Shown: positions 37,578 through 61,500 of the stretch, piece after piece | How positions within the stretch are numbered: position 1 is the stretch's first letter | How the letters are laid out: each line of letters begins with the position of its first letter | Source of the DNA: Schmidtea nova | Lineage: Eukaryota | Assembly: GCA_044892505.1 (NCBI GenBank) | Contig: CM097883.1 | Location: 290,346,001 to 290,410,000, forward strand | DNA: 64,000 nucleotides | Direction: 5' to 3' | Translations under genes and position numbers: made by a program | The notes under the pieces: model-generated | The model's database searches: none | The model's input: the letters and a program-made list of their open reading frames with translations, nothing else | Told to the model about the DNA's origin: nothing

Positions 37578-40500
37578 TTGAGAAAAGGAGCAAAGAGTGT
37601 CGCAATAAAGCCAACAAAAAAGCAGAAAGCCGGCAAAGATAACCACAAAAACCCACAAGGGAGTAAAGCGAGGAAAATAATAAGAGATAAATCAATTATC
37701 GAAAACGATAAATTGTCAGTAGTAAGCAACAGCTCAAGTAACAAAGAAAACCAAGCGGAACCCAAGGAGAACCAAACAAGCGAAATAGAAAGCGACGAAA
37801 CTAACAACGATAATATCGAAGAAGTAGAAAACGAGGTAGAACCAGAGGTAGAAACCAACGAGAGTGATAACGAAAGTATAATATCAGATAACATAGTAAT
37901 AAGAGAAACTGAAAGCGATTCAAGCTCGAGTGAAACAGAAGACGAACACAACAACGAATTAGAAACAAGAAGAAACGAAAGGAAAATAACTCAAGACAGC
38001 GGAATTGAAATGAGTGAACCAAGAGAAGAAATAAAGGATAAATTCCCAGGAGAACCATTCAACGGAGATGCGAGTAAATTAGAAATTTTTCTAAAGGAAT
38101 TTGGCATATTCGTGGAAGTATGCAAATGGAAAGCTGAGACAACAGCAAGTAGAATACAGTTATATTTGAAAGATAGCGCATTGGACCTATATTTGGAAGC
38201 AAAAAACGGTACCAATCCACCTACAAGCTGGACAGCGATAAAGGATTTTTTCCAACAAACATTTGGAATAAATAAAGTGCTGAGCGAGGCATTCATAGAA
38301 TTCTCAATGAGGAAACAAAAGATGAATGAATCTAATGCGGTATACGCGAGCGAACTGAAAAAATTAGCAAAATCGGTATTCAAGGATGGAGGTCCAATAA
38401 ACGAGGAGTTAATGGCAGCTATCTTCATAGGAGGACTAAGAAGACCCGACATAAGAGCGCAAGTAGGATGTCAAGGATGCAAAACCATAGATCAAGCGTT
38501 AGAAACAGCTAACCGATTTGAATTGCATATGATAGGGAGCGAAGGCAGAATTTATTTAGCCATGGACACAGCGCAAACCGAACCAGAAATAAATCTCAAC
38601 AATCACATTCCAAATTCGCAACAATTAAACCGACCACCCCCTCAACGAAGGAATGAAGGAAATAAAGCGCAGAACTTTGAAAGCCAAAACAATTACAACC
38701 CTCCAAGACAAACAAAACAATGTAAAACATGCGGGAAGTTAGGACACTGGCAGCAAGAATGCTATCAAAATTTGAATTGCGGAAAATGTGGAGTTAAAGG
38801 ACACTCGGAAAGCAGATGTTCTACAATAATCTGTTTTAATTGCGGACGACCTGGTCACTATTCAAGAAATTGCGGACAAAAAAGTAATCAGCGAGGAAAC
38901 TGGCAGAGTAATGGGAACCGACCAAATTACGGAAATCAAGCAAATACCGTAAACCGACCAGATTATGGAAACCAACAAAACAACAATAACAATAATCAGA
39001 ACAAAACCACCCCCAAAGAAATTCATTTGATGCAAGAAGTTCAAAGGTTGACGGAACTCATAAACAATACGACGAGAGGAAATCCGCAAACCAATCAACA
39101 ACAAATTAGCATGATGAGAAAAATAGAAAGCGAAAACGAACGATTGAATCGAGAAAGTAAAGCACGACACGCTCAGGAATGGGCAAGAATACAAAGAGAG
39201 GATGAACAAAAACAGCAAGAAAGAGAACGACAACCTCTAAGAATTAACATGCTAAGAGCAACAAACCAAACAGACACTCGCGAGAAAGAAATCACACTGG
39301 AAATGAATTCGATAGACCCGAATCCAGCCGACAACGAAAGTCGAAAAGAAATAGTACAAAAAGATGAAGAAGTAGAAAAAGAAGCAGAAAAGGGAGTGGA
39401 AACCGAGATAAACCAGGAAGAGAGGAAAGAGATTTGGAAAAAAGGAATGATGGTAATCATGCCCAACGACCATATGTTTCGATTCCAATATAACGCAAAA
39501 GAAGAAGTGAAAGTATTATTCAACAAAGTAAACCAGATGATTCCAGGAGTAACGAAGCTGCCCAGAGAAGCGTTCTTACAAATAGAGGGTGCACCATCAG
39601 TAAAATTGAAATTAACGGATATATGGGAAAACATGGGAGTAGTAGAAACAAAAAGAAATGTGATGAGAATTAAAGAAATAGAACCAGAAGAAATTCCACC
39701 ACCAATACGTCACGAAACCCGAATCCGGCGAATATTTGAAGGAAAAATGATAAGAAGACGTTTAAAAGAGATAGACGAGTTGGGAAAGAAAATGGAAAAA
39801 GTCGAAGTAATAGAGGACAAGAGTGAACCAACACCAGAAATTGACAAAAACGAACCAGAACCAACGGAGAATATACAAGGAGAAACGAACCAAATAGCAC
39901 ATATTAATATGCTAAGAAATACCACCAGAGAGTTTTCCGATGAAGAAGAAGATAGTGACATCAGTAGCCTAGCAGGAGACATATTAAATGAATCCGAAGA
40001 CGAAAATAAAGAAAGAGAAGTAATAAAGACCTCAGAACCTACACAGATAAAAGTAGATGAAATCCAGAAATTACTAGATAACTCGCTAGAAGTAATATAT
40101 AACGAAGAATTCATGGACAAGAAACAACATCGGAAATTCATGAAAGCATTACTACAAATGAACTACAAAGAATGGTTACAAGAACGGGAGGTAGACATGT
40201 TGAATCGATACGTAGGGAAATTAATAGAGGAACCACTCCTCAATTACACCATCTCAATAATAATAAATACATCTACACCAAGAATCTGGATCAAAACTCC
40301 ATTTACAGACGATATCTACAGATGGGTAGAGGATAGACTAGGGAGCTCATACAAAAACAAATTCATCTATTCGCAGAATAGACTCGTAAAGAAAAGAACG
40401 CACTTAGTAGAAACAGGTATATGGCCAGGAGAAATAACTCTGTTATCAATATGCGATGAAAAGGAAGAAGAGAACCTACAAGAAGTTGCAAGGGAGGCAA

Positions 40501-43007: not shown

Positions 43008-46000
43008 CACCGATAGCGCAACAGCGTTCGAAGTGTTTGATTGCGACCAAATGAAGTTAGGAGAAAAGTATTCATTGAGAGGCACGGAGCAATGCAAAGA
43101 TGCAACTCCAGTAGAGTTGCAAAAGATTAAAAAGGAACAATGGTACCACGTGTATCAAGAAGCAGAACTCATAAAGACAATGGTGAATGAATGTAAGGTG
43201 CAGAAGACGAGATTCGCATTCTACTGCGGGAGAGGACATTATTCAGCAATTGTCATGCCAGGAACGGAAAGAGAACCAATCGTGTTACAAGGAGAGGACT
43301 GCGAAGCACTGTTTAAACATGGAGAAGTAACAACAAGAGATAAAATCAAGATAAAAGGAAAGCCAGGAATGATGATGCAACAGACGTACTATGTAGCAGG
43401 ACGGATTACGGGAGGAGAAGGATATTGTCAAGGAGAAACCTACCCGATGTTCGGAACACTCGCAACCAACTTAGTGGTGATGGATACGTATATAGTCGAA
43501 CTAAAAAGCTATGAAGCATTCTTCGAACCCACAACGGGAGAAATGAAAACGTTATCCATGTGTAAAATCGACAGGACCATGTGTCAAACGGGAATGTCAA
43601 CATTAGTGTACAAACCAAAGGTGAACGAATGTCAATTACAACTGCTACAAGGAGCAAAGTTCGACGAAATCCAAGGAAAAACGTTCCAGGAAGAAGACGA
43701 TGACGACAAAGCTAGAGCAAAGCATCTCAAGGAAGCTTTAGAGAATAAAAGACAACTGAAACCAGATCATAGAGAAAAACGGATAGAGATGAGAGCCACA
43801 CCAACAGTGTTGATAACCACAAATCAGGATGTGGGAATGAGGTTCATAAAAGGGAAAGCAACCCTTAAGTGTAGTACAACGGTATACGAAACGAATTATC
43901 CAGGAATATATGTGTCAAAACAAGAAGTGCCAAATGCGAAACCCAAAATCGACACAATGGATATCAAACTACACCTATATGTGAATAATAAAATGGATTT
44001 CCTATTCCATAGAGGACAAGCCTCATTACAAAAAGTGTACTACGATCTGATAAACAATGATTGTATATTGAATCGAGAAATATTAAAGACAAAGTTGGCC
44101 GTAGCAATTACGAATCCAGATAGCGCGATGCCATTATTACCACTGAGAGAAGGACATTTCGGAAGAGTGGTTGGAGAAGCAATGTATGTATACATTTGTG
44201 AAAAGACACACGCATCGCTAGCAGCAACAACACAGTTGAAACCTGGAACCTGTACAAATGAGTTAGAAATCGACTACAAAGGAAAAGTACGATACGTTCA
44301 ACCAGTGACGAGAATCATCAATCCACCAGGGTTTGAACCAAATCCATTCAACTGTAGTAATGCGTATGGACCACTTTATCAGAAACCAGATGGTAAATGG
44401 GTTATGTTCCCAGGAAGATCCGAAGTGATAGCACCAAGAGAATTCGAGCTAATGCAGTTGTCAAAGGATAGGCAATTCAGCGACGTAGATGTCTCAAACA
44501 ACGGAATATATAGTCCAAAGGATTTAGAAGCAGCAAGGCAGAATATATTATTTCCAGCGAGAAGAGAAGCATTACTGTCAAATATCGTAACGATAACGGG
44601 AGGAACGGATTATCGAGAAGGACCGAATTACGAACTGTTGTTGTCACCAGCACATTTCAAGAAAGCCACGGAAAATATGATGAAAGCCATGTGGGGAAGA
44701 TTCCTGATATTTGGACAAATGATGGCGGGAATACTGGGGGTCATATTAATAATCCAAATCGTCAGAGTAATAATAACGCAAATGTTAGCGTGTTTCGATA
44801 TATACAAGAGGGAAAAGAAAGTGAATTGGAAAATGGTAGTAGGGTTTTTACCATTCCTTGCGAAAACAATGGTGTTGCATGGACACTCAAAAGATATCCA
44901 CCGAATAAAAAGACTCCTAAAGATACTAGCAAAAATGAAGGGAACAGATGAAGAAGTAGGACGAAAATTTAAAAAGATAATGAATGACGAACAAGCAAGA
45001 CAACAGCTCAAGAGAGAAAGAAAAGGTTTATGGGAGAGGGTGAAAGGATATAAAACCCAAAATGATTCGAGCGACGACGATGATGACGACGACGACTATA
45101 AGGGAGGACAAGTGTACAAGAACCAAGCACCACGATACATCGAAAAGAATCCAGCCGACGCATGGAAATGTTACGCACCTCCGCCAACAATGTATCAAGA
45201 ACCACTACAAGGAGAAAAAAATAGCACGATGCAAATGATGCCAATGACAAATGTATACCCCATGATACCAGAAGATTATAAAATGAGAAGATGTAGAAGT
45301 GTAGATCCACAAGGAGACGCACATACAATCGCCGTAATGTCATCAAACACAGGTCCAGTACTAACCACGACAATAGAGATTAACGGAAGAGAAATCGAAG
45401 CAATGATCGACACTGGAGCAAACATTTCCGCCATCGACATCAAATGGATACCACAGGAGCAAAGACGAGAAATAGAAAGGACAAACGTCCATGTAATTGC
45501 ATGTAGCAAAGAAGTTGTAGAAGTAGCAGGAAGATGGTGGGTAAAAATACGCCACTTAAATACAGAAATCGATACGTACGTAGCAGTCATACCAGCATTA
45601 AGCGTACCTTGCATTATCGGAACAGATTTGATGCCAGCGTTATTTAAAGAAATCGTAATCGATCTCGGAACAATGAGATTAAAGGATCGCACCGGACAAA
45701 TATGCGCAATAGAAGCCAAAGTAACGAGTTCAAAGCAAATGATAATACCGGCAAGAAAGGAAAAAATATGTTACGTAAAAATAGATCCGACAATCCAAGG
45801 CGATATGATTTTCGAACCAAGTAAGAGATTCGAGAAAAGAAAAGCGTTGCCAATGGCAAGAGGACTAGTCAACATAAACAATAATGGGGAAATCCCAATA
45901 AACGTAGTAAATTTCGACGAGGAGGACAAGATAATATACGAAAACGAAAGATTAGGTAAATTAACCCCAATGATGGATATCGAACTACCAATAGCAGGGG

Positions 46001-49000
46001 CAGAGAAAGATAAAGAACCAACCTGGAATATTGATAGTGAATTATTAAATGAGGATCAAAGGAAGCAGCTAGAAAAACTCCTGATAGAGTATAAGGATAT
46101 ATTTGCAGCATCCGATTTAGATCTAGGAACATGTGATGTCACGTTACATACGATACCATTAACCGACGAAACACCAATTGCATTAAGACCATACAAATTA
46201 GCAGAAGCACAGAAAGCAGTAGCGGAAGCAGAAGTGAAGAAAATGTTGGATGCAGAAGTAATCGAACCAAGTTGTTCACCCTGGCAATTTCCAGTAGTAA
46301 TGGTAAAGAAGAAAGACGGAACACAGAGATTCTGCATAGATTATCGAAGATTGAATACAGTGACAAAACGAGATACTTACCCATTACCAGACATCAACGA
46401 AATGCTACTAACATTACAGGGAGCAGCATATTTTACATCGCTAGATCTGAAAAGCGGATACTGGCAAATAAAAATGAAGGAAGAAGATAAAGAGAAAACT
46501 GCCTTTACCATCGGTAGAGACCTATATCAATTTCGAAAGATGCCCTTTGGATTAACAAACGCACCAGCATCATTTCAGAGATGCATGAATTTCGTCACCC
46601 ATGGAATAAAGCAGTGTATGGTCTACATCGACGATTTATTAATCTACTCTAGCACGTTTGAACAGCACATACAGGATATTCGAGATGTATTCGTTAGACT
46701 TAGACAATGGAAGTTAAAACTCAAGCCATCCAAGTGTGATTGGGCGAAAGAGAAAGTAACATTTTTAGGACATATAGTGTCAGCAAAAGGAAAAGAACCG
46801 GATCCTAGAAATATCGACAAAGTAAAGGAATGTCCAGTACCAAAAACAATAACCCAGATACAAGAATTTCTTGGACTATGTGGATATTATAGAAAGTTTA
46901 TAAAAGATTACGCCGGAATAGCAAAACCTATACAGGAACTAGTAAAGAAAGATGTATCCTTCATATGCGGAGACGAACAACAAACAGCTTTCGAGACATT
47001 AAGAGATAAACTGATAACCGCACCCATATTGGTACACCCAGACTTCAAGAAGCCATTCTTACTTGAAACAGACGCAAGCGGATATGCAGCAGGAGCAGTA
47101 TTAGGACAATACGACGATGAAGGAAAAGAACGCGTAATCGGATATTATAGCCGGACATTCAAAAAGCATGAGAAAAATTACTCAGTAACCGAGCGAGAAG
47201 CGTTAGCAATCATACTAGCAATTAAACACTTTAAATATTTATTATGGGGACACATCATCTGTATAACCACAGATCACCAACCGCTTGTGTGGTTAGGACA
47301 ACATAAGGAAACCTCCAGTAGATTAATGCGATGGGCAATGCAGCTACAGGAGTACTCACCAGACATAAAATTTAAATCAGGACGAGCGAATGCGAATGCA
47401 GACTGTATGTCCAGACTGACATTTCCGGAATTAACCGACCCGGATGTACAACGAATTTGTGTATTAATAGCAGAAGATTTAGATTTTAGTGAGTTAAAGA
47501 AAGATCAACAGGAAGACAGAGAGTTAGGACAGATCATAGAGTTCCTAACATCTCGAAATATGGAGGTATTCAAAGATAATAAAGAATTAAAGGAACATAT
47601 AGGAAAATATCAACATCGATATATAATAAATAAAGGATGGTTATTGATACAAGACGGTGAAAAGAGGCTGATGTGTTTACCGGAAAACAGAAGGAAAGAG
47701 ATAATGATCCAATACCACGATGGGAAATTAGGAGGTCATATGTCAGAGAAAAAGACAATAAATCGGATGAGACAGAAATATTATTGGCGAACAATGGAAG
47801 AAGATATAAAAGAATGGATTAAAAATTGCCTAACCTGCGCAACTAGAAAGGATAGTGGGAAGAAATGGAAGAACCCGCTACAACCAATGCCGATACCAGC
47901 AGAGCCAATGACAACTATAGCAATGGACGTAATAGGACCATTACCAGAAAGTTTAAACGGAAATATTTATATATTGGTAATAACGGATTATCTGACGAAA
48001 TTCCCGGAAGCATTTGCCATGCAAGATCAAAAAGCAAAAACCGTAGCAAAAATTTTGGTAGAAGAAATATGTTGCAGATACGGAACTCCAAAACAAATAC
48101 TCACAGACCAAGGAACTAATTTTATGAGCGAGCTATTGAACGAGGTAACAAACTATTTCAGAATAGCAAAATTGAGAACTTCACCATATCACCCGCAAAC
48201 GAATGGACAAACGGAGCGATTCAATGGTACATTGATCAGAATGTTATCAAATTACGTCAGCAGACATCAGACTGATTGGGACGAATATATAAAATTATGT
48301 TTAATGGCATACCGAATGTCGATACATGCAGCAACAAAACTAAGCCCATTTCAACTTATGTATGGAAGAGAATGCAACATGCCCATAGATTTAGAGTATC
48401 AACCACCATTATCGCAATATATGGAAGACGACGACTACATAACCAAATTCAAAGAAAGGATGCAGGAAATATGGAAAACGGCAGAACTCAACATTAAATT
48501 TTATCAGGAAAGTTATAAGGATTTACACGACCAGAAGAAAAATGTTAAAGCGAACGACCTAAAACCAGGAGATTGGGTGATAATAGAAACTCCCGAAATA
48601 ATACCAGGAACTGTTAAGAAACTCCAAAGACCTGGAAGAGGACCTTATGAAATTATATACAAAAAGGACAACAATGTCAAAGTTAAGCTAATAAATCGAC
48701 CGTTAATACGACCCATATATGTAAACACCTGCAGATGTAAGAAGGTGCCTAAAACGATAACTACAACACCAGAGAATCGAATAATAACCAGATCACAAAC
48801 AGCCAGGATAAATATGCTCAGAGCTAACGCAACTGAAGACGACAAAGCAGAAATAAGGCAAAAGGAAATCAGAAATAAAGAAATCATATTGAAGGCGAGA
48901 GAGATAATGGGAAGATGGCATGTTAGAGACGAAGCAGGCATATCAAGGGATATTAGACATATAATTAGCCGTTACGCACAAGGATTACCAACCGAACCAA

Positions 49001-52000
49001 TTATTTCTGAATTATTGGAAAAAATCCCTGAAATACTCTTATTGAAAGATGTAGGAGGACAACCAGCCTTACATAATGCGATAGAGTGTAAAAACATTGA
49101 AAGAGCAAAAGAATTCCTAAAAATCGCAAAAGAAACAAACCAAAACTTGGACGTAGGGAATCGGGAACAAGAAACTCCATTAATGACAGCCGCAATCCAC
49201 CAAGCAGATAAAGAAATGATAGAGCTATTGATAAAAGCCAATTTCAGTTGGACAGAACGAGATAGAGAAGACAAAACAGTCTTAAGTCACGTAATATGGA
49301 GTTCACACAAACTAATGCTGAAACATATAATCGCAAACGCCACATGGGAAATAGACGAATTAATAAAAGGAGACATTATCAAAGAAGCAATCAAAATTGG
49401 GAAATGCGACACGATCCGTAAGTTGATCAAATGGAAACGACCAGAAGAGGATACATGGGTCTTAGACATAAACGAAGTATACAGCGAAGGACAAAACGCG
49501 CTGTTAAGATATCTTCTGAAATTTACTTGTGATCAGAAGACATTACTAACTTTATTAGACAGAGGAAACATAAACATCACAAAAAATGAAGAAGAATACA
49601 AATTCGATAAAGAAAAGGAGGCCTTATTCAACAAGATTAGGAAATGGTGTGCGAAACCACTTGATAAGTTAATAACCTACAAAGACATAAACAATTTTAA
49701 CGAGAAATACCAGATGATAGTAAGTGAGTATGAGGAATTAGTTAAAATCTTAAACCATCCCGAAAAATGCAAACAGGTTTTAGAGAAAAAAGAAAGAGAA
49801 AGTAACAAGAAACTCACACCACTCTTTAAAGCAGAAGCACCATACCAAGCTAGACTAGATGCGATACAAGAAAAAGCAAAAGAACTGTTACCGGAATTCG
49901 AAAATAGTAAACATGCACTGGAAATACTCGGCGCATTAGTTGAAAAAGTACACGCATACGCAAAAGGAACATACAATGGTAACGACATAACAACTATAAA
50001 AAAGGAGATGCCAGTAACATTTTTACTACCAAAGGACGGAATAATGCCCATACATAGAGCTTTACGAAATGGCAAAGATAGAAAAGTAATGGAAATTGCA
50101 CGAATAATGCTAAACTGCGGAAGCAACATGAATATGGTAGACGAGAAAGGAGATACACTCATGATATTTGCAGCAAGGGCCAAAACGAAAACAAAAGTGT
50201 TGGAAGAACTATACAAAGCAGGTGCAGGACTTACAGGAAAAACAGATAAAGATAATTCAATTCTGGATGTAGCATTACTAACACATAATTGGGAAATGGT
50301 CAACTTCATTAAAACAATCTCAAATCAGGAAGAAATAGATTACCTAACTGATACGGTCAGGAAACCCAGTGTACTAACAATGATGCATAATGTCGAACTA
50401 ACAGAAGCAATACTTACGTGGATAAATCCGAATACTAACGAACCAGCATTCAGGATTAATGAGTTTACAGAACATAACCAAAATTGGTGCATAAGAAGTG
50501 CCTTAATAACGTATAAATGGCCAGAGATATTGAAGATGTTTATGGAAAGAAAGGATCTAAGGATCACAACCAGCCCGAAGGAAGAAAAGTACACAGGCAA
50601 ATGGAAAGAATTGATGAAGACATACATCAACAATTGGATCAAGGCCAAAAAGGAAATCTTAGAATATAAATCCACTAACAAAGTAATACCAGAACAGGTA
50701 GAAACACAAGAGTTTGAGGCAAGTAATCTAACGACATTAGCGTATGCGAAACTAATAGAAGAAATCAATGTCGAGGACGACATTTTCGACGAGCCAGGGG
50801 GAGATGACAATACAGATAGTGACGACGGTAACAACTCAGAAAATTCAAACGATCACGAACCACCCGATAAAGAGGAAAACGAGAGAAAAGACAAGAAACG
50901 AGACAAGGAAGAAAAGAAAAGTAAAGACGAAAAACAAAGAGATGAAGAGGGAGAACAAGGAAAAAACGACCAAGGAGATAAAAATGACACCCAAAGAACA
51001 GGTTATAAATCAACCATAAAACCATTCTTCAAACCAGAATTACTATTATTAACAGTGATTTTAACGTTAATTAACCCAAGTCAAGGAATGACATGTGAAG
51101 AAAGGGCAATAATACAAATAAAAAACGCGAAAGGAATCGAACGAGTATGTTGGTCAAAAAAGGACAAAATCACGGAACAAAATAGTCCGATGGATTGCAG
51201 AATCTCAAAACACGAGCAAGAGATCATAGAGATCAATGACCTAGATCTAAATACCTGGTACAAAATATGCACCATTAGAAAACAAAAGCATCCAAGATCA
51301 CACAACACAATCGCATGTGCAAAATACCAAACACCTAAAGCAGCCATGACAATACAACAGTCACCCAAAGGAGATTACATCCTCGGAAAATGTGGAAGAA
51401 CAGAGACACAGGGAACAGAAAACAAAAAACCCCAGGCAACAGATAAGCAAACAACACCAACCCTACGAATTACAATAGAGAGGCCTGAAGCAAGAGTTGC
51501 CACAAACGAAACCGAAAGAGTGTCCTACCAAATGGAAGTATTATGTTTAGCACTCATACTAATAATGATAAAACGATTAGAGGAAGGAATAGAAATTGAA
51601 ACTATGACAATAACAGAAGTAGAAGATACACAGAATACTAACATAAAATGTTGGGCGAGGAATAACGAGGAAATCGGCGTAAACGAAATAAGGAAAAGTC
51701 GAAAACTAACAACGAATAAAGTAATTAAAATATCCGAAGTAAAAGCAGATAAGACGTACAAACTATGCCTACTAGAAAAAGAAACGAACAAGAAAGGTAC
51801 CACAAAATGTAAAACATTTCAACCTGGAGAGGTAATAAAGTTCAGAAGGAGAACGAGGAAGAGAAATAAACAAATCAAGCGGAAAGTAAACATAACATTA
51901 GAAATAAAAGAGATAGAACCAAATGTGAAAGGAGTATGCTGGAGGAAGTACGAAAAAGAAGTAAATAAAAGAACGACACCACAATGTCGAACAAACACAG

Positions 52001-54474
52001 GAACAACGACGATTCAAATAAAAGGTTTAGAAAGTAAACAAACCTACGAAATATGTTTGGTAAAGAAAAATGATCAGATAACGGTAAACGACCTGGAATG
52101 CGGAATATATACAACTTCATCCGGAACAAGAACCAAAACGTTAACACGGAAAAATAAAAGGAAACAACAAAACAAAGGAAAACCGAAGTACACCACTACC
52201 TTTAAAAACAATAAACAACCAACAAACCAAGAAGTTACGACGAAACCCGAGAGAAAAACATCAGCAACTCTAACATTATGGAAAATAGAGAATAAAACAT
52301 TGGAAATATGTTGGATAATAGTACAGAAACATATAAGAAGACAATCAAGAGAGTGCAGAAAAACAAATAAAGAAATCAAGATCGAAAAACTACAATTTAA
52401 TAGTGAGTACGAAGTATGCGCAATAGAAATAATGGACGCACTAAGAAACCAACAAGAAAGATGCGAAACCTACTATACACCAGTAAACGCGACATCAAAA
52501 GGAATAACAAGGAAACTCGAATTCAGGGAACTAAGCCAAACGAATGAACAAATGGACGCAGAAAAAATAATAATCGACCCTCAAGCAAAATGGACACCTG
52601 AAGAAGTTATCAAAGAAGTCAAAAGAAAGCAAGAGGAACGAGAACAATTAATGAGAAAACTAAAGGGACAATACGGAATAATGTTCAACCAAAGCGAACC
52701 TATACAAACAGACGAGAATAAAGAAATTAAAGAACTAATCGGCTTAGGAATATTAACAGCAACCATACCAGTAATAATCGCGTTATCAGCTATATGGATA
52801 CGCAAGATAAGCCCAAGAAAATCAACAACCCAATGGCTAAATATAGATAATACAAGCCATGGAGTAGAAATACTAGAAGAAAAAGCACGAGAAGAACCAA
52901 ATAAGAAAGAAGCGAAAAGCGGAAAACTAGGAATAAACAACAAAGACAAGGAAATAAAAGAGATTAAAGGCGAAGAGAAAAAATATGAAAGGCGAACCAG
53001 AAGCCTACCGCAGAGTTCAAAATGGTTGGGTCTAACAATAATATTGACATTAATCAATAGGGAAGAAGCAACAAACCTACAAGCAGGGATAAAAATAGTA
53101 AATGTCCAGGAGGTCGAGAAAATATGCTGGAATAGAGAGGATGAACCAATTGGGAAAGATAACCCACTAAAATGCATAATCAGAAAATCCGACCAGGATA
53201 TAGTACGAATAGAAGGGATGGATAGAGGAATCATGCATCGAATATGCATAATAGGAAAGGAAAAGAAGTCGGGGCTACCTAAGACAGTCGTATGTCAAAA
53301 ATACGAAACGCCTGGACTCGAATGGTATAGAGTAAAACCAACAAAGAAAGAAATCAAAAACACCATAGATCAACCAGCAACTCAGATAAGAAACACAACG
53401 GATAAACCAGGAGAAGGAGAGAAAAGCACCAATAAAACGAGAGAAAGAATATCACCCCAACAGGAGTGCGTATGCATAGCATTAATACTAGCAATGTCCA
53501 AACGTATCGATAAAGGAATAATAATAGAACAAATGGCCATAACAATAAGGAAAACAAGTAGCAACAAACTATGCTGGGGAACATACAACGAACCAAGGAA
53601 GGAATACCAAGTTCAGACAAGCGACGAATCACGAACAAACAAGGAAATCGAAATACAAGAAATACAAATGAATGAAGAAGGAAGTATATGTATCTGGGAG
53701 AAAGGAATCCAAGAGGGAATAGAGCATTGCAAGACATTCCAAAAAGGAGAGATACTGAAATTCGATGAAGAAGAATTAACAAAGACAGAAAGAACTCTGA
53801 CATTAACAGGACTCGATCAGACAGTTAAAGGAATATGTTGGACAAAGCATAACCCAGAAGGGGAAGAAGACAACCTAACCCACTGTAAAGAAATAAAGAA
53901 TAAAGAAAAAGTCGAATTAAAGAAAATGGAAGTAAATAGGACATACGCGATATGTACCTTCACCAGAAAAGGTTCAGAAAAACCAGAATGCGGATTATAT
54001 CAGATCTCAGAGAAACTACAACAACAGATCGAACCAGGAAACGTGGAAAACCGAACAAAAGAAAATAACGTCAAACAACTACTAAACCGCCATTGGTCTA
54101 TACAAGAAGTAATGAACAAAGTTAAGAGTCAAATACAGAAAGAGAAGAAGCCAGAGGCTCAAACCCAAAATGGGATAAAAGCGAACCAGAATAAAAGAGA
54201 AACAAACAGTGGAAAACCAATAATAGGATTAATCAGTATAGGAATATTAATAGCATATGGAATACTGACGACAAGCATAATAGTATATTGGAGATACAGA
54301 AGGAGAAACAAAGCAACAGCCATACAATGGCCAGATATTAAAATTATGAAACAAAAAATAGAAATACCAGAAGAGATACAGCAAGAATTCCAAAGAAGAA
54401 CGAAAGGTAAAGAATTCTGGAAACAAATAGAAGATGAAGAACGATACGAGGAAAAGACGATAATGATGGTATAG
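42961..54474 (+). CDS. pol: Env-Pol-accessory polyprotein: chuvirus-like glycoprotein, PR, RT, RNase H, integrase, ankyrin repeats, FN3-like membrane modules
   Basis: Signal peptide from ATG 42961; TM ~44701-44775; DTG 45409; YIDD 46624; TDASG 47068; HX6H..CX2C 47716; D,D,E (AMDVIG, TDQGTNF, ERFNGTL); GPY; no stop in 11.5 kb; +1 frame relative to gag with overlap to 43007. Confidence 0.95.
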   Translation: MNLSSIIMMMLIWMISTDSATAFEVFDCDQMKLGEKYSLRGTEQCKDATPVELQKIKKEQWYHVYQEAELIKTMVNECKVQKTRFAFYCGRGHYSAIVMPGTEREPIVLQGEDCEALFKHGEVTTRDKIKIKGKPGMMMQQTYYVAGRITGGEGYCQGETYPMFGTLATNLVVMDTYIVELKSYEAFFEPTTGEMKTLSMCKIDRTMCQTGMSTLVYKPKVNECQLQLLQGAKFDEIQGKTFQEEDDDDKARAKHLKEALENKRQLKPDHREKRIEMRATPTVLITTNQDVGMRFIKGKATLKCSTTVYETNYPGIYVSKQEVPNAKPKIDTMDIKLHLYVNNKMDFLFHRGQASLQKVYYDLINNDCILNREILKTKLAVAITNPDSAMPLLPLREGHFGRVVGEAMYVYICEKTHASLAATTQLKPGTCTNELEIDYKGKVRYVQPVTRIINPPGFEPNPFNCSNAYGPLYQKPDGKWVMFPGRSEVIAPREFELMQLSKDRQFSDVDVSNNGIYSPKDLEAARQNILFPARREALLSNIVTITGGTDYREGPNYELLLSPAHFKKATENMMKAMWGRFLIFGQMMAGILGVILIIQIVRVIITQMLACFDIYKREKKVNWKMVVGFLPFLAKTMVLHGHSKDIHRIKRLLKILAKMKGTDEEVGRKFKKIMNDEQARQQLKRERKGLWERVKGYKTQNDSSDDDDDDDDYKGGQVYKNQAPRYIEKNPADAWKCYAPPPTMYQEPLQGEKNSTMQMMPMTNVYPMIPEDYKMRRCRSVDPQGDAHTIAVMSSNTGPVLTTTIEINGREIEAMIDTGANISAIDIKWIPQEQRREIERTNVHVIACSKEVVEVAGRWWVKIRHLNTEIDTYVAVIPALSVPCIIGTDLMPALFKEIVIDLGTMRLKDRTGQICAIEAKVTSSKQMIIPARKEKICYVKIDPTIQGDMIFEPSKRFEKRKALPMARGLVNINNNGEIPINVVNFDEEDKIIYENERLGKLTPMMDIELPIAGAEKDKEPTWNIDSELLNEDQRKQLEKLLIEYKDIFAASDLDLGTCDVTLHTIPLTDETPIALRPYKLAEAQKAVAEAEVKKMLDAEVIEPSCSPWQFPVVMVKKKDGTQRFCIDYRRLNTVTKRDTYPLPDINEMLLTLQGAAYFTSLDLKSGYWQIKMKEEDKEKTAFTIGRDLYQFRKMPFGLTNAPASFQRCMNFVTHGIKQCMVYIDDLLIYSSTFEQHIQDIRDVFVRLRQWKLKLKPSKCDWAKEKVTFLGHIVSAKGKEPDPRNIDKVKECPVPKTITQIQEFLGLCGYYRKFIKDYAGIAKPIQELVKKDVSFICGDEQQTAFETLRDKLITAPILVHPDFKKPFLLETDASGYAAGAVLGQYDDEGKERVIGYYSRTFKKHEKNYSVTEREALAIILAIKHFKYLLWGHIICITTDHQPLVWLGQHKETSSRLMRWAMQLQEYSPDIKFKSGRANANADCMSRLTFPELTDPDVQRICVLIAEDLDFSELKKDQQEDRELGQIIEFLTSRNMEVFKDNKELKEHIGKYQHRYIINKGWLLIQDGEKRLMCLPENRRKEIMIQYHDGKLGGHMSEKKTINRMRQKYYWRTMEEDIKEWIKNCLTCATRKDSGKKWKNPLQPMPIPAEPMTTIAMDVIGPLPESLNGNIYILVITDYLTKFPEAFAMQDQKAKTVAKILVEEICCRYGTPKQILTDQGTNFMSELLNEVTNYFRIAKLRTSPYHPQTNGQTERFNGTLIRMLSNYVSRHQTDWDEYIKLCLMAYRMSIHAATKLSPFQLMYGRECNMPIDLEYQPPLSQYMEDDDYITKFKERMQEIWKTAELNIKFYQESYKDLHDQKKNVKANDLKPGDWVIIETPEIIPGTVKKLQRPGRGPYEIIYKKDNNVKVKLINRPLIRPIYVNTCRCKKVPKTITTTPENRIITRSQTARINMLRANATEDDKAEIRQKEIRNKEIILKAREIMGRWHVRDEAGISRDIRHIISRYAQGLPTEPIISELLEKIPEILLLKDVGGQPALHNAIECKNIERAKEFLKIAKETNQNLDVGNREQETPLMTAAIHQADKEMIELLIKANFSWTERDREDKTVLSHVIWSSHKLMLKHIIANATWEIDELIKGDIIKEAIKIGKCDTIRKLIKWKRPEEDTWVLDINEVYSEGQNALLRYLLKFTCDQKTLLTLLDRGNINITKNEEEYKFDKEKEALFNKIRKWCAKPLDKLITYKDINNFNEKYQMIVSEYEELVKILNHPEKCKQVLEKKERESNKKLTPLFKAEAPYQARLDAIQEKAKELLPEFENSKHALEILGALVEKVHAYAKGTYNGNDITTIKKEMPVTFLLPKDGIMPIHRALRNGKDRKVMEIARIMLNCGSNMNMVDEKGDTLMIFAARAKTKTKVLEELYKAGAGLTGKTDKDNSILDVALLTHNWEMVNFIKTISNQEEIDYLTDTVRKPSVLTMMHNVELTEAILTWINPNTNEPAFRINEFTEHNQNWCIRSALITYKWPEILKMFMERKDLRITTSPKEEKYTGKWKELMKTYINNWIKAKKEILEYKSTNKVIPEQVETQEFEASNLTTLAYAKLIEEINVEDDIFDEPGGDDNTDSDDGNNSENSNDHEPPDKEENERKDKKRDKEEKKSKDEKQRDEEGEQGKNDQGDKNDTQRTGYKSTIKPFFKPELLLLTVILTLINPSQGMTCEERAIIQIKNAKGIERVCWSKKDKITEQNSPMDCRISKHEQEIIEINDLDLNTWYKICTIRKQKHPRSHNTIACAKYQTPKAAMTIQQSPKGDYILGKCGRTETQGTENKKPQATDKQTTPTLRITIERPEARVATNETERVSYQMEVLCLALILIMIKRLEEGIEIETMTITEVEDTQNTNIKCWARNNEEIGVNEIRKSRKLTTNKVIKISEVKADKTYKLCLLEKETNKKGTTKCKTFQPGEVIKFRRRTRKRNKQIKRKVNITLEIKEIEPNVKGVCWRKYEKEVNKRTTPQCRTNTGTTTIQIKGLESKQTYEICLVKKNDQITVNDLECGIYTTSSGTRTKTLTRKNKRKQQNKGKPKYTTTFKNNKQPTNQEVTTKPERKTSATLTLWKIENKTLEICWIIVQKHIRRQSRECRKTNKEIKIEKLQFNSEYEVCAIEIMDALRNQQERCETYYTPVNATSKGITRKLEFRELSQTNEQMDAEKIIIDPQAKWTPEEVIKEVKRKQEEREQLMRKLKGQYGIMFNQSEPIQTDENKEIKELIGLGILTATIPVIIALSAIWIRKISPRKSTTQWLNIDNTSHGVEILEEKAREEPNKKEAKSGKLGINNKDKEIKEIKGEEKKYERRTRSLPQSSKWLGLTIILTLINREEATNLQAGIKIVNVQEVEKICWNREDEPIGKDNPLKCIIRKSDQDIVRIEGMDRGIMHRICIIGKEKKSGLPKTVVCQKYETPGLEWYRVKPTKKEIKNTIDQPATQIRNTTDKPGEGEKSTNKTRERISPQQECVCIALILAMSKRIDKGIIIEQMAITIRKTSSNKLCWGTYNEPRKEYQVQTSDESRTNKEIEIQEIQMNEEGSICIWEKGIQEGIEHCKTFQKGEILKFDEEELTKTERTLTLTGLDQTVKGICWTKHNPEGEEDNLTHCKEIKNKEKVELKKMEVNRTYAICTFTRKGSEKPECGLYQISEKLQQQIEPGNVENRTKENNVKQLLNRHWSIQEVMNKVKSQIQKEKKPEAQTQNGIKANQNKRETNSGKPIIGLISIGILIAYGILTTSIIVYWRYRRRNKATAIQWPDIKIMKQKIEIPEEIQQEFQRRTKGKEFWKQIEDEERYEEKTIMMV

Positions 54475-54599: not shown

Positions 54600-54956
54600 A
54601 TGACCGAACAGGACGAAACAACTGAAATAACTATGGCTATGAGATGGAAAGCGCAATGCGATTTATTAGTACGAACAGTCAACTCATTACAGAACCAACT
54701 AGCGGAAAAACAAATGTTGCTATCAGAAAGTTACAACAACTGTTTCGAACAATTACACAGAATAGAGGAACAACAAAGAGCGATAACTGAACTCACCAGA
54801 GAAAATCAAACAATAAGCAACACCAACCAAAGACAAGCAATAGAAATAAACCATTTAACACGAGGAGAAAGAGAAGGATCCGAAGAAGGATGGATGAGTT
54901 GGGTAATAAATAGATTAAACAACGAAGCGGAACCAGATTCAACGAATGAGCCATAG
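54600..54956 (+). CDS. 118-aa coiled-coil accessory protein
   Basis: Heptad-rich Q/E/L sequence; TAG-AAA-ATG start context shared with neighbours. Confidence 0.7.
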   Translation: MTEQDETTEITMAMRWKAQCDLLVRTVNSLQNQLAEKQMLLSESYNNCFEQLHRIEEQQRAITELTRENQTISNTNQRQAIEINHLTRGEREGSEEGWMSWVINRLNNEAEPDSTNEP

Positions 54957-55048
54957 ATAAATAAAGCGGAAAACTGTAAATATGTAAAAATAAAAACAAG
55001 AAAAATCAAAAATAAATGACAAGTCGAATGTATATATTATTGTAGAAA

Positions 55049-56425
55049 ATGGACAGAGAAGAACGAACAATCGAAATCTTGAGATTAGAAAACAGAAAAT
55101 GGAGCAAGAGGCTCACATGCGGGAAGTGTAACAATTTATTACGAGAACCTAGACAAACGATATGTGGATGTAGAATATGTACAAAATGTATACAAGAATT
55201 AGATGCAACAGGAATAACAACATGCCCAGAATGTAAAGAAGGAAGAATAGTGTTGGACGAAACCAGAACGGATAAAGCAACCCAGAGAGAAATTATGAGC
55301 ACCATAACGGAGTGCGTAAATACACCTTGTACATGGCAAGGACAAATAAGCAATCTAGAAAATCACATGGAAAATTGCGAAGAGAAAAGAGCCGAATGCG
55401 AGAAGTGTCAACAGATAATAATACTAAAAAAGAAAGAACAACACAAGGACGAATGTAAAGAAGAAGAAATCGCATGCAAGTATTGTGAAACTCGAGAGAC
55501 AAGGAGAAGAATCGAAGAAGAACACTTAAATATAACAGAGGAGAAAATATGCGGACAATATGTAAGCAAATGTCCAAACAATTGCGAAATAACAGAAGAA
55601 ATAAAGTTACATGAACATTGGAAAATATGCACCGAAAGGCCAAGAGAATGTCCATATAACAAGCATGGATGCAAGGAAAAGCGGACGCGAAAAACAATGA
55701 AACAACACCTAGAAGAAGCAGCACTAACGCATGTGGAAATGACAAACGAAACGACAAAAGAAACGGAACAGACAATCCAGAAATTAGAAAAAGAAGTAGA
55801 ATCACATAAGATAATGATGAGTTTACTATTAGAAACAAGAGAGCAGTTTGAACTAACTCGCAAAAGAATGGAAGAGAAAATAATAGCCATAGCAGAATTA
55901 GGAAAAGGAATGAAAATACAATATAATCAATTAATACGAGAAATTGACGAAAGAAGGGACTTACCAATCGCACCTTACCTATGGAAAGTAACAGATTTCA
56001 GAGACAAACTAGCAGAAGCCAGAAATATGACGAAAACAGCAGTAATAAGCCCACCATTTTATTTATGGAAAAATGGGGTTAAAATAAGATTGAAAGTATA
56101 CCCAAATGGAGACGGAAGAGGACAAGGAACACACGTGTCAATATTTTTCTCGCTATGTAAAGGAGAATACGATGACCTAATAGAATGGCCCTTGAAAGTA
56201 GGAGTCATTATAAGAATCAGGAGTGTGGGAAAACCAGTAGAAAAGTTCTTTGAAACAGACAAACATACGAGTACGAGCGAAAAACCAACGACAGAATGCG
56301 GACTAGCAGCAGGAGAACCAATGTTTATAAGGAAAGAAAACCTATGGGAACGACTATATGCAGACACGCTATACATAGAGATGGAGAGGCATGAGAAAAC
56401 GGATAAAAAAGGATGGTTGGCGTAA
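55049..56425 (+). CDS. TRAF: TRAF-family protein (RING, TRAF zinc fingers, coiled coil, MATH), intronless, 458 aa
   Basis: CGKCNNLL.EP.QT.CGCR.C..C RING; five Zn-finger-like repeats; YLWKVTDF, ISPPFY, KVYPNGDGRGQGTHVSIFF.LCKGEYDDL.EWP MATH motifs. Confidence 0.95.
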   Translation: MDREERTIEILRLENRKWSKRLTCGKCNNLLREPRQTICGCRICTKCIQELDATGITTCPECKEGRIVLDETRTDKATQREIMSTITECVNTPCTWQGQISNLENHMENCEEKRAECEKCQQIIILKKKEQHKDECKEEEIACKYCETRETRRRIEEEHLNITEEKICGQYVSKCPNNCEITEEIKLHEHWKICTERPRECPYNKHGCKEKRTRKTMKQHLEEAALTHVEMTNETTKETEQTIQKLEKEVESHKIMMSLLLETREQFELTRKRMEEKIIAIAELGKGMKIQYNQLIREIDERRDLPIAPYLWKVTDFRDKLAEARNMTKTAVISPPFYLWKNGVKIRLKVYPNGDGRGQGTHVSIFFSLCKGEYDDLIEWPLKVGVIIRIRSVGKPVEKFFETDKHTSTSEKPTTECGLAAGEPMFIRKENLWERLYADTLYIEMERHEKTDKKGWLA

Positions 56426-56538: not shown

Positions 56539-57600
56539 ATGGGAAATATAGAAGTAACCTTACAAGAAGTAACCGTACATCAAGACGAAATGATCAGAAA
56601 TCACATGGAGCGGATTGGGATATGGATTCACGCCTATTATCGTAAACAGGAAGAATTGGAAAGACAAACCGAAGTACTAAGAGAAGCTGAAGAAAGGAAT
56701 CAAAGAAGTAGAGAAAAAATAGAGGAAGTCTATAAATTACTGAGGCAACAAAACGAATACTACAAAGGAATGATGAAAGAGCGACGAGAGGATAGAGATA
56801 GACAACAGATAAAAACAGACCACAAGATCCAGTCAATCACCGAACAAGCAAGATATTGGAAGAAAGAGGCAAAAGACTCTTACAAGGAAGCAAGGGAGAT
56901 AATTGAACGAACAGCGTATAGCGATGATTGGAAACTGTTTAAAGAGATCGATGAATTAAAAGAGGAATTAGGGCAAAAGATCAGTCAAGAAGCGTCAAAT
57001 AAAGTATGGAGTAAGAAAAGACAACAATTTATCAGAGAACAAGCCAAGAAAATAAAAGAATTAACTTATCAAGTACAAAGAATGGGAGAAGATTTAGCCA
57101 ATCAAGAACAATTAAAAGGTATGCTGACCGAAATGTGGAATCACAAGGAAGAAAACATGAAAAGAGACATAAATGGATATCAAGGAGTGATCACCCAGAA
57201 GAAAATAGAATTAAAAAGGACTAAAGAAAGAATGGAAGAAACAAAACAGAGTTATGAAGAAAACATAACCAACTTGACAAAAGAAAACGAAGAACTGAGA
57301 AAGAAGCTAATAGAAAAACCAGTACCCACAAAGGAAACAAGTATCACAGCAGCAGTGACCGAAATGATAGAGAAAGAAGAGAGAGAGAAAAAATTAGCAG
57401 AACTAGAAAAACAAATAGAAACCCTAACAGAGCAGGCGAACTATCTGGAATACTTATTAGATGAAGAGATCCAGATATCCCACACGTACCGAGAGGAAGT
57501 GGAAATGTGGAGGAGTACGGTAATATGGATGCCACTCCCCATAAACCAGGTGGAACCTCAAGACGAAGGTTTTCACGAACCTAACGAAACCCTCGTGTAA
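56539..57600 (+). CDS. 353-aa long coiled-coil accessory protein
   Basis: E/K/Q/R-rich heptads throughout; TAG-AA-ATG start context. Confidence 0.75.
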   Translation: MGNIEVTLQEVTVHQDEMIRNHMERIGIWIHAYYRKQEELERQTEVLREAEERNQRSREKIEEVYKLLRQQNEYYKGMMKERREDRDRQQIKTDHKIQSITEQARYWKKEAKDSYKEAREIIERTAYSDDWKLFKEIDELKEELGQKISQEASNKVWSKKRQQFIREQAKKIKELTYQVQRMGEDLANQEQLKGMLTEMWNHKEENMKRDINGYQGVITQKKIELKRTKERMEETKQSYEENITNLTKENEELRKKLIEKPVPTKETSITAAVTEMIEKEEREKKLAELEKQIETLTEQANYLEYLLDEEIQISHTYREEVEMWRSTVIWMPLPINQVEPQDEGFHEPNETLV

Positions 57601-57679: not shown

Positions 57680-58240
57680 ATGAGAAAGCTCGCAATACCA
57701 ATACTCCTAGGGTTAATAACCATCACCCTACAGAGAGAAGATCTACAACTTACCGAAACCCAATTACGAGTTCTACCCGACAAAACCTACCAAAAAGTAG
57801 ACAGCCTAATCGAAGAAGTAATTAAAGAAATCAACGAATTCCGACAGAAATATCCCCACAATCAAGATCATCAAATCCAACAAATCTTAGATAACCAACA
57901 ACTGAAGCTAAAAGAAACCCAAAAAACCCTGAAAGAAGGTAGAGAGCCCATAAAAAGCCTAGCCCAAGCTGAAATAGAATATCAAGAGAAATATATCATA
58001 GCAATCATCATAATCCTCTCAATCAGCGTAACTATCATCGCAATCACAATCCTGATTGCCTCCTACCGGATAAAAATCCTCAAACAGAAACAAACCATCG
58101 TCAATCAAACATCAAGGCGAGACAAACGAACCCAAAGACGTATGAGAAAACATCTAGATCAAATTCAGACCCACTACGAATTAGCTACAATCAATGAGAG
58201 AACTCAAACCCAACCCAATGCGAGCCGGAGGATCGAATAG
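57680..58240 (+). CDS. 186-aa predicted type I membrane protein
   Basis: N-terminal hydrophobic leader (LAIPILLGLITITL), helical ectodomain, TM (IIAIIIILSISVTIIAITILIA), basic tail. Confidence 0.7.
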   Translation: MRKLAIPILLGLITITLQREDLQLTETQLRVLPDKTYQKVDSLIEEVIKEINEFRQKYPHNQDHQIQQILDNQQLKLKETQKTLKEGREPIKSLAQAEIEYQEKYIIAIIIILSISVTIIAITILIASYRIKILKQKQTIVNQTSRRDKRTQRRMRKHLDQIQTHYELATINERTQTQPNASRRIE

Positions 58241-58457: not shown

Positions 58458-59747
58458 TGTTGGGCCCACCAATTGGTCTAAAAAGGCAAAAATATTGTAC
58501 TAATTTAAACAATAAATACAAATAATAACCACAAAAAACATTCGAAAAACCTAAATTAAAAATTAAAATAAAATAATAAATAATAATTACTAAATTTCCA
58601 GCAAAGGAAGAAAATCAAATTGACACGAGAACGAGCAGTATGGGGGTCTGAAATAAGAAAATTACAAATAAAATCAAATAAAAGTACAATTAATTGGTTA
58701 ATTACTTGAAAAATCGAGACCACCCAGCGAGAAATCTGAACCGGAAATTTAAAATGGTTTATATTAAAATAAAATAACAAAATTACTTTGATGGACGGCC
58801 TGATCCTGATTGGTCAATCTGACCAACTGGATCAGTATAAATACCGATCCAAAAATCATACAGACAACACCTAACAACTTAGTTACCGAACTGAACTATC
58901 ATAGTCAACTTTGATACGATAAATACTGTATAAATTTTTGGAGAACACTGCATCGTGGATTTAAACAGTAAATTTTTTTTTTGTATTGTATTTTGTATTA
59001 ATTTTTATGATATGTTTCATGATTCCCATTTGTTTTATTTTCATTTAATATAATTTATTACTATTGCTCTATTTTTTTTTCTTATGCCATTATTTTATGA
59101 TATAATAAATATACTTCCTCAGTAGCTTACGCTGCGAGGGAGCAAGCCGTAAATGTGGGATTTCACCGTTCCACAAGATGGTGAGCAGAGTTTCTATTGG
59201 TATTCTTTATTTAATTTAATTTTTTCGGAAGTTTCACGGTACGGTAAAGTTGTGCAGGGACAAGGACACGAGTAAAATTTGTAGACAGTGGTTAACATTT
59301 ACATTCGATCAGACAGGCGAAAACAAACTATAATATCAATTCTCAGGTCGACTAGATCGATTTTTTCATATACACGCAAATTTTTGTAAATCAACATAGC
59401 TGATCGAAATAATGTCCGGACACACCGAGACGATTTCGACGTTTCAACTACAGTTTAATTTAGACATAAACAACGACATATTCGGATCGACACTACTGAT
59501 TAAATAAGTAAGATCGTAACCTGATCGCTGTACATAGCGCAGGTAATAATAGGTAAATTTTTAATATTCCGATCGCTGTACATAGCGACGGTGTTAATTG
59601 AATAGTTTGGAAAATATTTTTTTTATTTCCTCCTTTTCACATTTTTTTTTGTGTTATTGATCAACGAGCAGAGCACTTTTTATCAGGTCTCGCCAAAATT
59701 TACGGATTTATCACAGTAAAATTCTATTAGCATTATTATTTTCGCAG

Positions 59748-60248
59748 ATGAAATCAACGATACTGGATGAATTTCTAACAACTCAACGTCATGTGGCACG
59801 GGTCGAAAATCCTCTAATCCGGACGCAACGGAAGAAATTGAAGTCGCTTCCACAGGAACTCCTCAGAACGCTAAATGCGTTGATGTATAAATGGAGAAGG
59901 GAACTAGGAAAGAAATGCCCATTTTCGATTTGGGCCGGTGGATTGGATACCATCGTATATCGAGGAGGCCCCGGATGGGAAATTCAGGACGAAAGAGACC
60001 GGGAGACGACAGCTTTGTTCATCATAGTGGTGTCAGACAGCGAAGGAAATCCAACGACAGTGATCCATTGGGGATATGTCTCACCGCTCAAGTTGCTTAA
60101 ATTCGGGTTGATTCCGAATCACCTACCGAAAACGTGCCACGGACGCCCCAAACTAAACTGTTCGATGGCTCACATCCGACGAAATCCAGTCAATCACGGG
60201 TTGCATATTACTCCCGTTCACGGCCTCAAGCGAAGTGTTTTCCACTAA
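59748..60248 (+). CDS. LTR ORF-A (3' LTR copy)
   Basis: Identical protein to 33611-34111. Confidence 0.65.
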   Translation: MKSTILDEFLTTQRHVARVENPLIRTQRKKLKSLPQELLRTLNALMYKWRRELGKKCPFSIWAGGLDTIVYRGGPGWEIQDERDRETTALFIIVVSDSEGNPTTVIHWGYVSPLKLLKFGLIPNHLPKTCHGRPKLNCSMAHIRRNPVNHGLHITPVHGLKRSVFH

Positions 60249-60433
60249 ACATTATATTCACATTTTTATCAACTAAACGATTTCAATAAATTAAATGGTG
60301 TTGATCCGTGTTTTTTGTTTGTCCTTAGTTAAATTTATTTCTATTTATTTAATCATATGATTTTTACACTCGACGGATAATATTAATCTTGGTAACATGT
60401 TTGATGCATTATAAATTGGGTTTGTTATTTAGT

Positions 60434-61024
60434 ATGACGGAAACTAGCCAACAGCGAGAATTGGACAAGGCGTGGAGAATCCGCCGAGCATTGGAAAAGG
60501 AGCTAAACCAAGAAAAAGCCTTACGAGCCAAAGCAGAAGCTCAGATTCAGCATTTACGGACCAGCTGGTTCGCACCAGCTCGCATGAAGGAGCAGATGAG
60601 TCGGACGGAAAGGGCTCAAAAGACAGCTGACGATTATCGCACCGAATGGGAAGCAACAAAAATTGAGTTGCGCCGATGTCTCCATTCGGTGACGACTTCA
60701 TTTATCGAGTCCGAATTGAAAGCACAAATCCGACCCATTACTTACCAGAAATGGGTAGGAGAACAGAAAGTGGCCTGCTCAGTCAGTACGGACACCGATG
60801 GACTCGAGGCAACCACAGTGCAGAGTCGGGTGGAAACCCCCACTGTACCAAACCCCGTCGGAAGAACGAATAAGTGGAAACGAATCGGCTCCAAGCGCCG
60901 TCGCCAAAGAAAGCTGTTTTCTCAACAATTGCAGACACAAGTAACCACTATGGCAGAAATGTCGGAGGCCGAGTGGTTATCAGAGATATTCCCTCCAGAA
61001 GGAATTTTCAAAGAATTTCTATAA
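60434..61024 (+). CDS. LTR ORF-B (3' LTR copy)
   Basis: One K>E difference from the 5' copy. Confidence 0.8.
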   Translation: MTETSQQRELDKAWRIRRALEKELNQEKALRAKAEAQIQHLRTSWFAPARMKEQMSRTERAQKTADDYRTEWEATKIELRRCLHSVTTSFIESELKAQIRPITYQKWVGEQKVACSVSTDTDGLEATTVQSRVETPTVPNPVGRTNKWKRIGSKRRRQRKLFSQQLQTQVTTMAEMSEAEWLSEIFPPEGIFKEFL

Positions 61025-61500
61025 CAGATAGAATACGATGTCCGATTTGGGAGTCAATTAAATCTTTGCTCGTTTTTGTTTTGTTGTTGTTATTTCCTTT
61101 GTATTTCTTTCGATTAAATAATTCATATAATTAAATTTCAATTACCCGTCACACAACGAAAGGAGTAGCGATAAAAAGAACTTGAATATTATCAAATTCG
61201 TAGTTTGGTTCTGCTTGTTTGTTTTTTTTTTTTTTTTTTTGATAAATACATAGCCTCACACACACAAAATAGAACAAGAATTGCGTAAGTCCTTCTACGG
61301 CCGCGTGAACCCGTAAGCATAAAGGGGGAGTAGTCCTAGCAATAGTGCTCACCTGCCCCTCATTGCTTAACCACCCTGCGCATCACCAACTTGGTTATCA
61401 AGGGAAATAATCAAGGGCGCTCGAGTGTAGCTTACGACTATTTATGCATGATCATGGATGGGAGATCCCTAGCAATCATTAGAATTTTTACCAAACCGTC

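Follow-up and report, generated by a model that had tools for sequence, protein, structure and literature searches.

The window analysed here, a 64,000-nucleotide stretch of Schmidtea nova DNA, contains a full-length TRAF reading frame (55049..56425, forward strand) that sits between the two LTRs of a giant gypsy retroelement. The locus raises the question of whether such a gene is a lasting component of the element or a passing copy of a host gene, and what a TRAF protein would do there. A sequence-only reading had described it as a complete, intronless gene captured by the element and long resident in it, and had taken a cysteine in its RING finger as a sign of altered ligase activity and possible dominant-negative action.

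The frame runs uninterrupted from ATG to TAA and encodes 458 aa. By alignment to TRAF structures, aa 24-62 (55118..55234) form a RING domain with eight Cys, of the C4C4 type. It is followed by five TRAF-type zinc fingers (aa 89-228; 55313..55732), their number being inferred from the spacing of Cys and His residues, by a long helix predicted to be the TRAF-N coiled coil (aa 225-303; 55721..55957), and by a MATH/TRAF-C domain (aa 310-445; 55976..56383). Pfam matched MATH_2 over aa 310-445 (E 5e-21) and zf-TRAF (E 7.5e-7), while its RING models matched weakly, below their cut-offs (E 0.02-0.03). Against structures, the N-terminal 150 aa aligned with the RING and zinc fingers of TRAF6, TRAF5, and TRAF2 (E 1e-12 to 7e-11), and the best PDB matches of the MATH region were TRAF3, TRAF5, and TRAF2 (E 3e-23 to 2e-20). 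The AlphaFold2 model, built on a 22-row alignment, had a mean pLDDT of 87.1 and showed a continuous helix over aa 225-303 (pLDDT mostly 86-96) and a beta-sandwich over aa 310-448; the Foldseek rows listed for it were TRAF1-6 (E 2.5e-15). The MATH identity of the C-terminus is certain, and the order of an N-terminal RING, TRAF zinc fingers, a coiled coil, and a C-terminal MATH/TRAF-C domain is that of the TRAF2-6 type. The RING-zinc finger-coiled coil-MATH architecture first proposed is confirmed. From homology, the protein would be expected to form trimers and to bind receptors and IAPs.

The carrier is a Burro-like gypsy element of about 29 kb, read on the forward strand from 32321 to beyond 61500. 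Its 5′ LTR (32321..35376) is 3056 nt long, begins with TG and ends with CA, and after it comes an 18-mer (35383..35400) that resembles a primer-binding site for tRNA-Pro. An accessory ORF of 167 aa (35708..36211) encodes an IAP-type RING with the canonical His (Pfam zf-C3HC4_3, E 3e-11; XIAP/cIAP, E 1e-9). No BIR domain was detected by Pfam in the nine element ORFs scanned, and this ORF is possibly a BIR-less counterpart of the IAP cargo of Burro1. The Gag part, with CCHC knuckles (38010..43007; Pfam and ORF list), is followed by an Env of the Monjiviricetes fusion glycoprotein type (PF24664, E 1.5e-70) and by PR, RT, RH, IN, and ankyrin (RVT_1, RT_RNaseH, rve, and Ank_2), together spanning 42961..54474. 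Gag and env were in one stop-free frame in all 14 scorable sister copies (16 fetched); the frame shift of the window copy at their junction, 42961-43007, is a copy-specific break or an assembly error. In the apoptosis and ubiquitin cargo of the element, MATH, ankyrin, and the IAP-type RING are clear, and a Bcl-x BH2-like stretch near the end of gag (about 42795-42910) is weak, with E about 1. In the tail of the polyprotein (~51100-54474), extracellular-like units that contain Cys recur, along with hydrophobic stretches.

Four closely spaced ORFs follow pol. Directly upstream of the TRAF ORF is one of 118 aa (54600..54956), for which no convincing family match was found, and directly downstream is one of 353 aa (56539..57600) that is likely a coiled coil; the last, of 186 aa (57680..58240), contains a hydrophobic stretch that likely spans a membrane. 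The readable part of the 3′ LTR (58458..61500) differs from the 5′ LTR at 6 of 3043 compared bases (99.8% identity) and continues into N, for which reason the 3′ end of the element and its target-site duplication are unreadable. Judged by LTRs only 0.2% apart, the TRAF-bearing insertion in the window is very young. ORFs of 166 and 206 aa are also present in each LTR (33611-34111 and 34267-34887 in the 5′ LTR, 59748-60248 and 60404-61024 in the 3′ LTR), without a convincing Pfam match. An ORF at 63209-63676 on the reverse strand, which resembles a fragment of a DDE transposase, lies outside the element.

The TRAF ORF is not confined to this insertion. An exact 26-nt pattern encoding the Cys form of its RING occurred 154 times in the genome and was absent from the controls, and the His version of the same pattern did not occur in the genome. 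When the genome (1.25 Gb) was searched with the protein, 92 matches, chosen by best score, were all 94-100% identical, and seven of them had a stop. To count copies, elements were chosen by their RT-RH DNA, 40 being listed and 36 remaining once the copy in the window and three near-duplicates in tandem had been removed; loci chosen by their TRAF (L117-L120) were excluded. The TRAF ORF was in place within 10 kb in 31 of the 36 copies, and the other five break off before it; in 28 of the 31 it had neither stop nor indel. At one site (G000:C1 590.84-590.95 Mb), four near-identical copies of the element stand in tandem with ~33-kb spacing.

For the measurement of selection, an initial set of 30 copies ranked by TRAF similarity was rejected as biased. 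Pairwise comparison of 32 sequences gave a dN/dS of 0.12 for TRAF (95% bootstrap 0.08-0.16), which indicates purifying selection. By domain, the values were 0.12 for the RING, 0.13 for the zinc fingers, 0.14 for the coil, and 0.08 for MATH, with overlapping intervals, and variants shared between copies gave 0.13 versus 0.35 for singletons. The 118-aa ORF, at 0.08, was constrained as strongly as MATH. RH (0.01) and integrase (0.02) were under tighter constraint than TRAF, a difference that we count against the explanation preferred below, and the polyprotein tail (0.28) was the loosest region measured. TRAF is therefore a standing cargo of the element under purifying selection.

Three further element families carry a TRAF at about 70, 52, and 43% identity, and the order pol, 118-aa ORF, TRAF, 353-aa ORF is common to all four. 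Among the Cys and His residues of aa 1-234, 28 of 30 are identical across the four families, including all eight RING Cys. Synonymous sites between families were saturated (pS 0.60-0.77), and no dN/dS value was taken from them. In a fifth family, of Burro1 layout (L065, L066), MATH is the only TRAF domain present and is embedded in the gag polyprotein. In one sister-family copy (L070, G000:C2:167489000-167498900), pol reads in frame into the C-terminal part of TRAF, a joint that is likely a deletion scar.

With regard to origin, codon usage sets the TRAF ORF apart from the host genes. At its 131 four-fold degenerate sites the frequency of A is 0.70 and that of T 0.05; gag and pol of the element are similar (A 0.56-0.62), but in 11 host TRAF frames A is 0.25-0.40 and T 0.21-0.46. 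The A-rich style noted from the letters is thus that of the element. The nearest host TRAF in the genome was only 30% identical, too distant for any host gene to be named as the donor, which also counts against the preferred explanation. No relative more than 45% identical was found among the best 150 of a HMMER library search, and a word-indexed protein search returned 10 distant TRAFs. The TRAF sequence was also present in contigs of four sequencing runs of one study, none recorded as RNA.

In a full-length tree of 24 rows, rooted on TRAF4-like rows, the two element rows were sisters (100/100), grouped with two unnamed proteins (97/95), and fell within a clade of host and Dendrocoelum TRAFs (99/99). 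A MATH-only tree of 30 rows, in which the deep host branches were poorly separated, united the four element families (98/90). It also joined them with the polyprotein-embedded MATH and the protein P0029 (94/91), a grouping neither established nor rejected. A quick tree of 51 rows, treated as weak, left the polyprotein MATH unplaced, and the tree tool flagged the element rows for unusual amino-acid make-up, which can draw rows together. The best matches of the sister protein P0029 in the genome were mostly element copies, with one host gene among the top five, and no locus for it was found in metagenome contigs. One old capture is the simplest reading of these trees, its direction and singleness being inferred, and the donor was likely a planarian host TRAF that already had a Cys-type RING. 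Capture by the retroelement and long residence, as first proposed, are supported by the copy number, the purifying selection, the four families, the ameliorated codons, and the 30% best host match. Host TRAFs themselves are numerous in this genome: a search for the MATH family gave dozens of host genes among 150 scored matches, a large cluster at about 405-455 Mb of G000:C2 holds dozens of MATH matches, many in tandem, and a host ORF of 335 aa (L073:3568-4572) has two tandem MATH domains.

The residue on which the sequence-only reading had based its functional proposal is Cys41 (55169-55171), in the motif CGCRIC (aa 39-44). It does stand opposite the His of TRAF2, TRAF5, and TRAF6 in the structure alignment. 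The Cys is, however, a trait of the hosts and not a mark of dominant-negative action: among 19 distinct host RING motifs found in the 41 non-element loci read in the genome, 18 have Cys at this site, and the sole motif with His belongs to a TRAF4-like gene. In a set of 159 outside proteins, the residue is His in 88, Cys in 17, and another in 18, and 36 have no RING motif. Three of the 10 near relatives looked up are named TRAFs of Dendrocoelum lacteum (TRAF-2, -4, and -5), the names of the other seven being uninformative, and all three have the Cys-type RING. The element's own IAP-type RING ORF retains His. Cys is itself a zinc ligand. Moreover, the C4C4 RING of Not4/CNOT4 binds and works with its E2 (PMC4431670). 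Because host TRAFs share the Cys and C4C4 RINGs can work, it was most likely inherited from the donor, and no loss or damage of the RING specific to the element was found (RING dN/dS 0.12, interval 0.04-0.28).

The term intronless also calls for qualification. The uninterrupted frame is there, but at seven distinct host loci (L031, L035, L036, L037, L039, L050, and L061) RING to MATH likewise runs in one open frame, of 392-486 aa. Intronlessness alone is consequently no proof of passage through mRNA, and as evidence for retro-capture it is weak.

Because it lies downstream of pol, TRAF needs an mRNA of its own. Its ATG is preceded, at a distance of 3 nt, by a conserved YAG motif rich in T (55037..55048), a likely 3′ splice acceptor: each of the four families has TT(A/G)TTGTAG plus one to three A ahead of the TRAF ATG, and all 31 covered copies show the motif without change as far as the AG. 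In the window, YAG followed by two or three A also precedes the ATG of the other three cassette ORFs and is absent before those of gag, env-pol, and the RING ORF; in the coding interior, YAG with one to three A stands before only 4 of 370 ATGs. Given this acceptor-like motif just before the ATG in four families, expression from a spliced subgenomic mRNA is likely, an internal promoter being the alternative. Spliced-leader trans-splicing in planarians is named in reference titles of PMC8629364, and BURRO1 is reported to be transcribed and PIWI-controlled (PMC8532177). AATAAA words were denser between the ORFs, with 7 in 409 nt of spacer, than in coding DNA, with 0.28 per 100 nt; as non-coding AT-rich DNA would give the same, they were not counted as support.

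The explanation that we prefer is that purifying selection keeps the full-length TRAF as a lasting accessory gene of this giant, Burro-like gypsy element. The capture was probably a single, old one, from a planarian host TRAF already carrying the Cys-type RING; the gene is probably expressed by way of a spliced subgenomic RNA, and its product would serve as a TRAF2/3/5-like adaptor favoring survival of the cell in which the element resides. The pro-survival role is argued by analogy and may be considered somewhat probable: RNAi of host TRAF raises cell death in Schmidtea (PMC7586133), and stem cells are reportedly protected by the IAP cargo of Burro1 (work cited in PMC13465017). As for the RING, TRAF6 requires Ile72 and Leu74 for E2 binding, and Arg residues of its linker and first zinc finger (ZF1) contact ubiquitin, the linker-helix Arg125 serving both this contact and RING dimerization (PMC5702613). 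In a hand-numbered alignment, the element TRAF has Lys26 and Asn28 at the two E2-surface positions and Ser101 at that of the ZF1 Arg, yet keeps the linker Arg as Arg80 (55286..55288), which is Arg in all 31 covered copies, a combination also seen in TRAFs that act as partners in heterodimers. On these residues, the TRAF of the window family is likely to be weak as a ligase by itself but competent as an adaptor or partner; its intrinsic activity is probably low because of Lys26/Asn28 and not because of the Cys. Individually weak TRAFs can complement each other in RING heterodimers (PMC5702613). The low ligase activity is a soft prediction because the E2-surface residues vary among element families (K/Y/K/I and N/N/K/Q) and hosts, the named host TRAF P0032 having K/H; the linker position reads R/R/K/K across the families. 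That no BIR was detected in the IAP-type RING ORF counts against the preferred explanation, BIR being the domain that binds TRAF coiled coils. A more elaborate form of it is speculative and, on balance, doubtful: the accessory genes would form a cassette like that of a complex virus, cut from one long RNA at conserved acceptors by cis- or spliced-leader trans-splicing, and TRAF, acquired in a single event that preceded the divergence of the families and afterwards pared down in Burro1 to a MATH domain within the polyprotein, would work with the IAP-type RING and the BCL2-like domain as a self-encoded survival-signaling module. If this were true, hundreds of element copies would be a major source of TRAF activity in stem cells.

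Viruses commonly interfere with TRAF signaling, and the element TRAF might be a decoy of this sort, joining host TRAF trimers or RING dimers with an inactive RING and so blocking immune or death signaling. The polar residues at both E2-surface positions of the window family, the Ser at the ZF1-Arg position, and an Arg before the linker helix where TRAF2 and TRAF6 have Phe would all fit, as would changes in two important words of the MATH groove (TSTS for SSSF and AAGEP for ASGCP). We nevertheless consider this unlikely, and dominant-negative action is unsupported. Its stated basis fails on the host RING motifs given above and on the 17 Cys among 123 outside proteins with a RING motif, and the RING and zinc fingers are constrained like the rest of TRAF and kept in four families, when the simple route to a decoy is RING loss, as in TRAF1 (PMC7586133). 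In addition, mixing a TRAF6 mutant dead for E2 binding with a ZF1 mutant brought activity back, and the weakly active TRAF5 rescued TRAF6 mutants (PMC5702613).

An intact C4C4 RING with its linker Arg could also belong to an active E3 ligase or scaffold that serves the element's own cycle instead of host signaling, by ubiquitination of Gag or of restriction factors or in particle assembly and release. That C4C4 RINGs can bind E2 (PMC4431670), that env and another RING ORF are present in the element, and that the neighboring 118-aa ORF is co-conserved are consistent with such a role, but the lowest dN/dS of the four TRAF domains is that of the receptor-binding MATH (0.08; intervals overlap), and MATH is all that the Burro1-like family keeps. 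Since that family is MATH-only and the position varies between families, TRAF does not belong to the invariant core needed for replication, and we regard the proposal as quite improbable. A neutral passenger or a recent copy of a host gene would suit the very young insertion and the five of 36 copies without TRAF within 10 kb; it is very hard to reconcile with a dN/dS whose upper bound is 0.16, with a frame and zinc ligands kept while synonymous sites saturated between families, and with a nearest host gene at 30% and ameliorated codon use, and we give it hardly any weight. The near-identical recent copy in a single insertion that the sequence-only reading had named as its own refutation was looked for, and the gene is instead multi-copy, under selection, spread over families down to 43% identity, and ameliorated in its codons. 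A recent host-gene copy was rejected for these codons and the 30% identity.

TRAF-C cargo in Burro elements is already published (PMC6431247), though barely studied; what is added here is a whole TRAF gene, and not just a MATH_TRAF_C motif, under selection in four families. We found no full-length TRAF ORF of Burro elements in the literature searched, the main Burro papers and supplements apart, which may already describe one. A transposon-encoded signaling adaptor thereby becomes testable by RNAi in a regeneration model, beside the reported Burro1 IAP, and copies of the element can confound both the counting of TRAFs in planarians and the design of RNAi experiments. Most of the expanded planarian TRAFs normally have a C4C4 RING, and the literature searched yielded no ligase test for them.

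Among known systems, the vertebrate TRAF2/3/5 and TRAF6 share with the element TRAF the fold, the domain order, and the linker-helix Arg, and differ in their C3HC4 RING with His and in Ile72/Leu74 and the ZF1 Arg of TRAF6, which the element has not kept. Closer are the planarian host TRAFs (Dendrocoelum lacteum TRAF-2/-4/-5, loci L031-L061, and the Smed-TRAFs of PMC7586133), which are of the same clade and have the same architecture, the Cys-type RING, and often RING to MATH in one exon; they are about 26-30% identical to the element TRAF, which differs in its A-rich codons, longer branch, and polar E2-surface residues. The B-IAP cargo of Burro1 (Lee et al. 2026, cited in PMC13465017) is likewise a host-derived regulator of cell death in the same kind of element, but it is another gene, with a reported function, whereas that of the element TRAF is a prediction. 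The carrier itself most resembles the giant gypsy elements that in Schmidtea mediterranea are called Burro1/GYPSM1 and Burro-2 to -4, described as having MATH_TRAF_C, BIR, ankyrin, and BCL2-like motifs and an env in frame between gag and pol (PMC6431247). It shares with them, by the published description, a length of ~30 kb, long LTRs, and high copy number, the order gag, env, PR-RT-RH-IN, in which gag and pol flank an in-frame env, and the ankyrin, weak BCL2-like, and TRAF-C cargo; at ~29 kb, with LTRs of 3056 nt, it falls a little short of the ">30 kb" stated for Burro elements. In the Dugesia tigrina Burro-like element, MATH_TRAF_C is also on a separate accessory ORF, which, however, lies upstream of ORF1 and is described with no mention of a RING or zinc fingers (PMC6431247). 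In Burro1, MATH_TRAF_C is a domain of the ORF1 polyprotein and BIR is listed; because the TRAF of the window is a whole, separate ORF downstream of pol and Pfam found no BIR, and with a family of Burro1 layout existing separately in the same genome, the window element is, by the published description, Burro-like and not Burro1.
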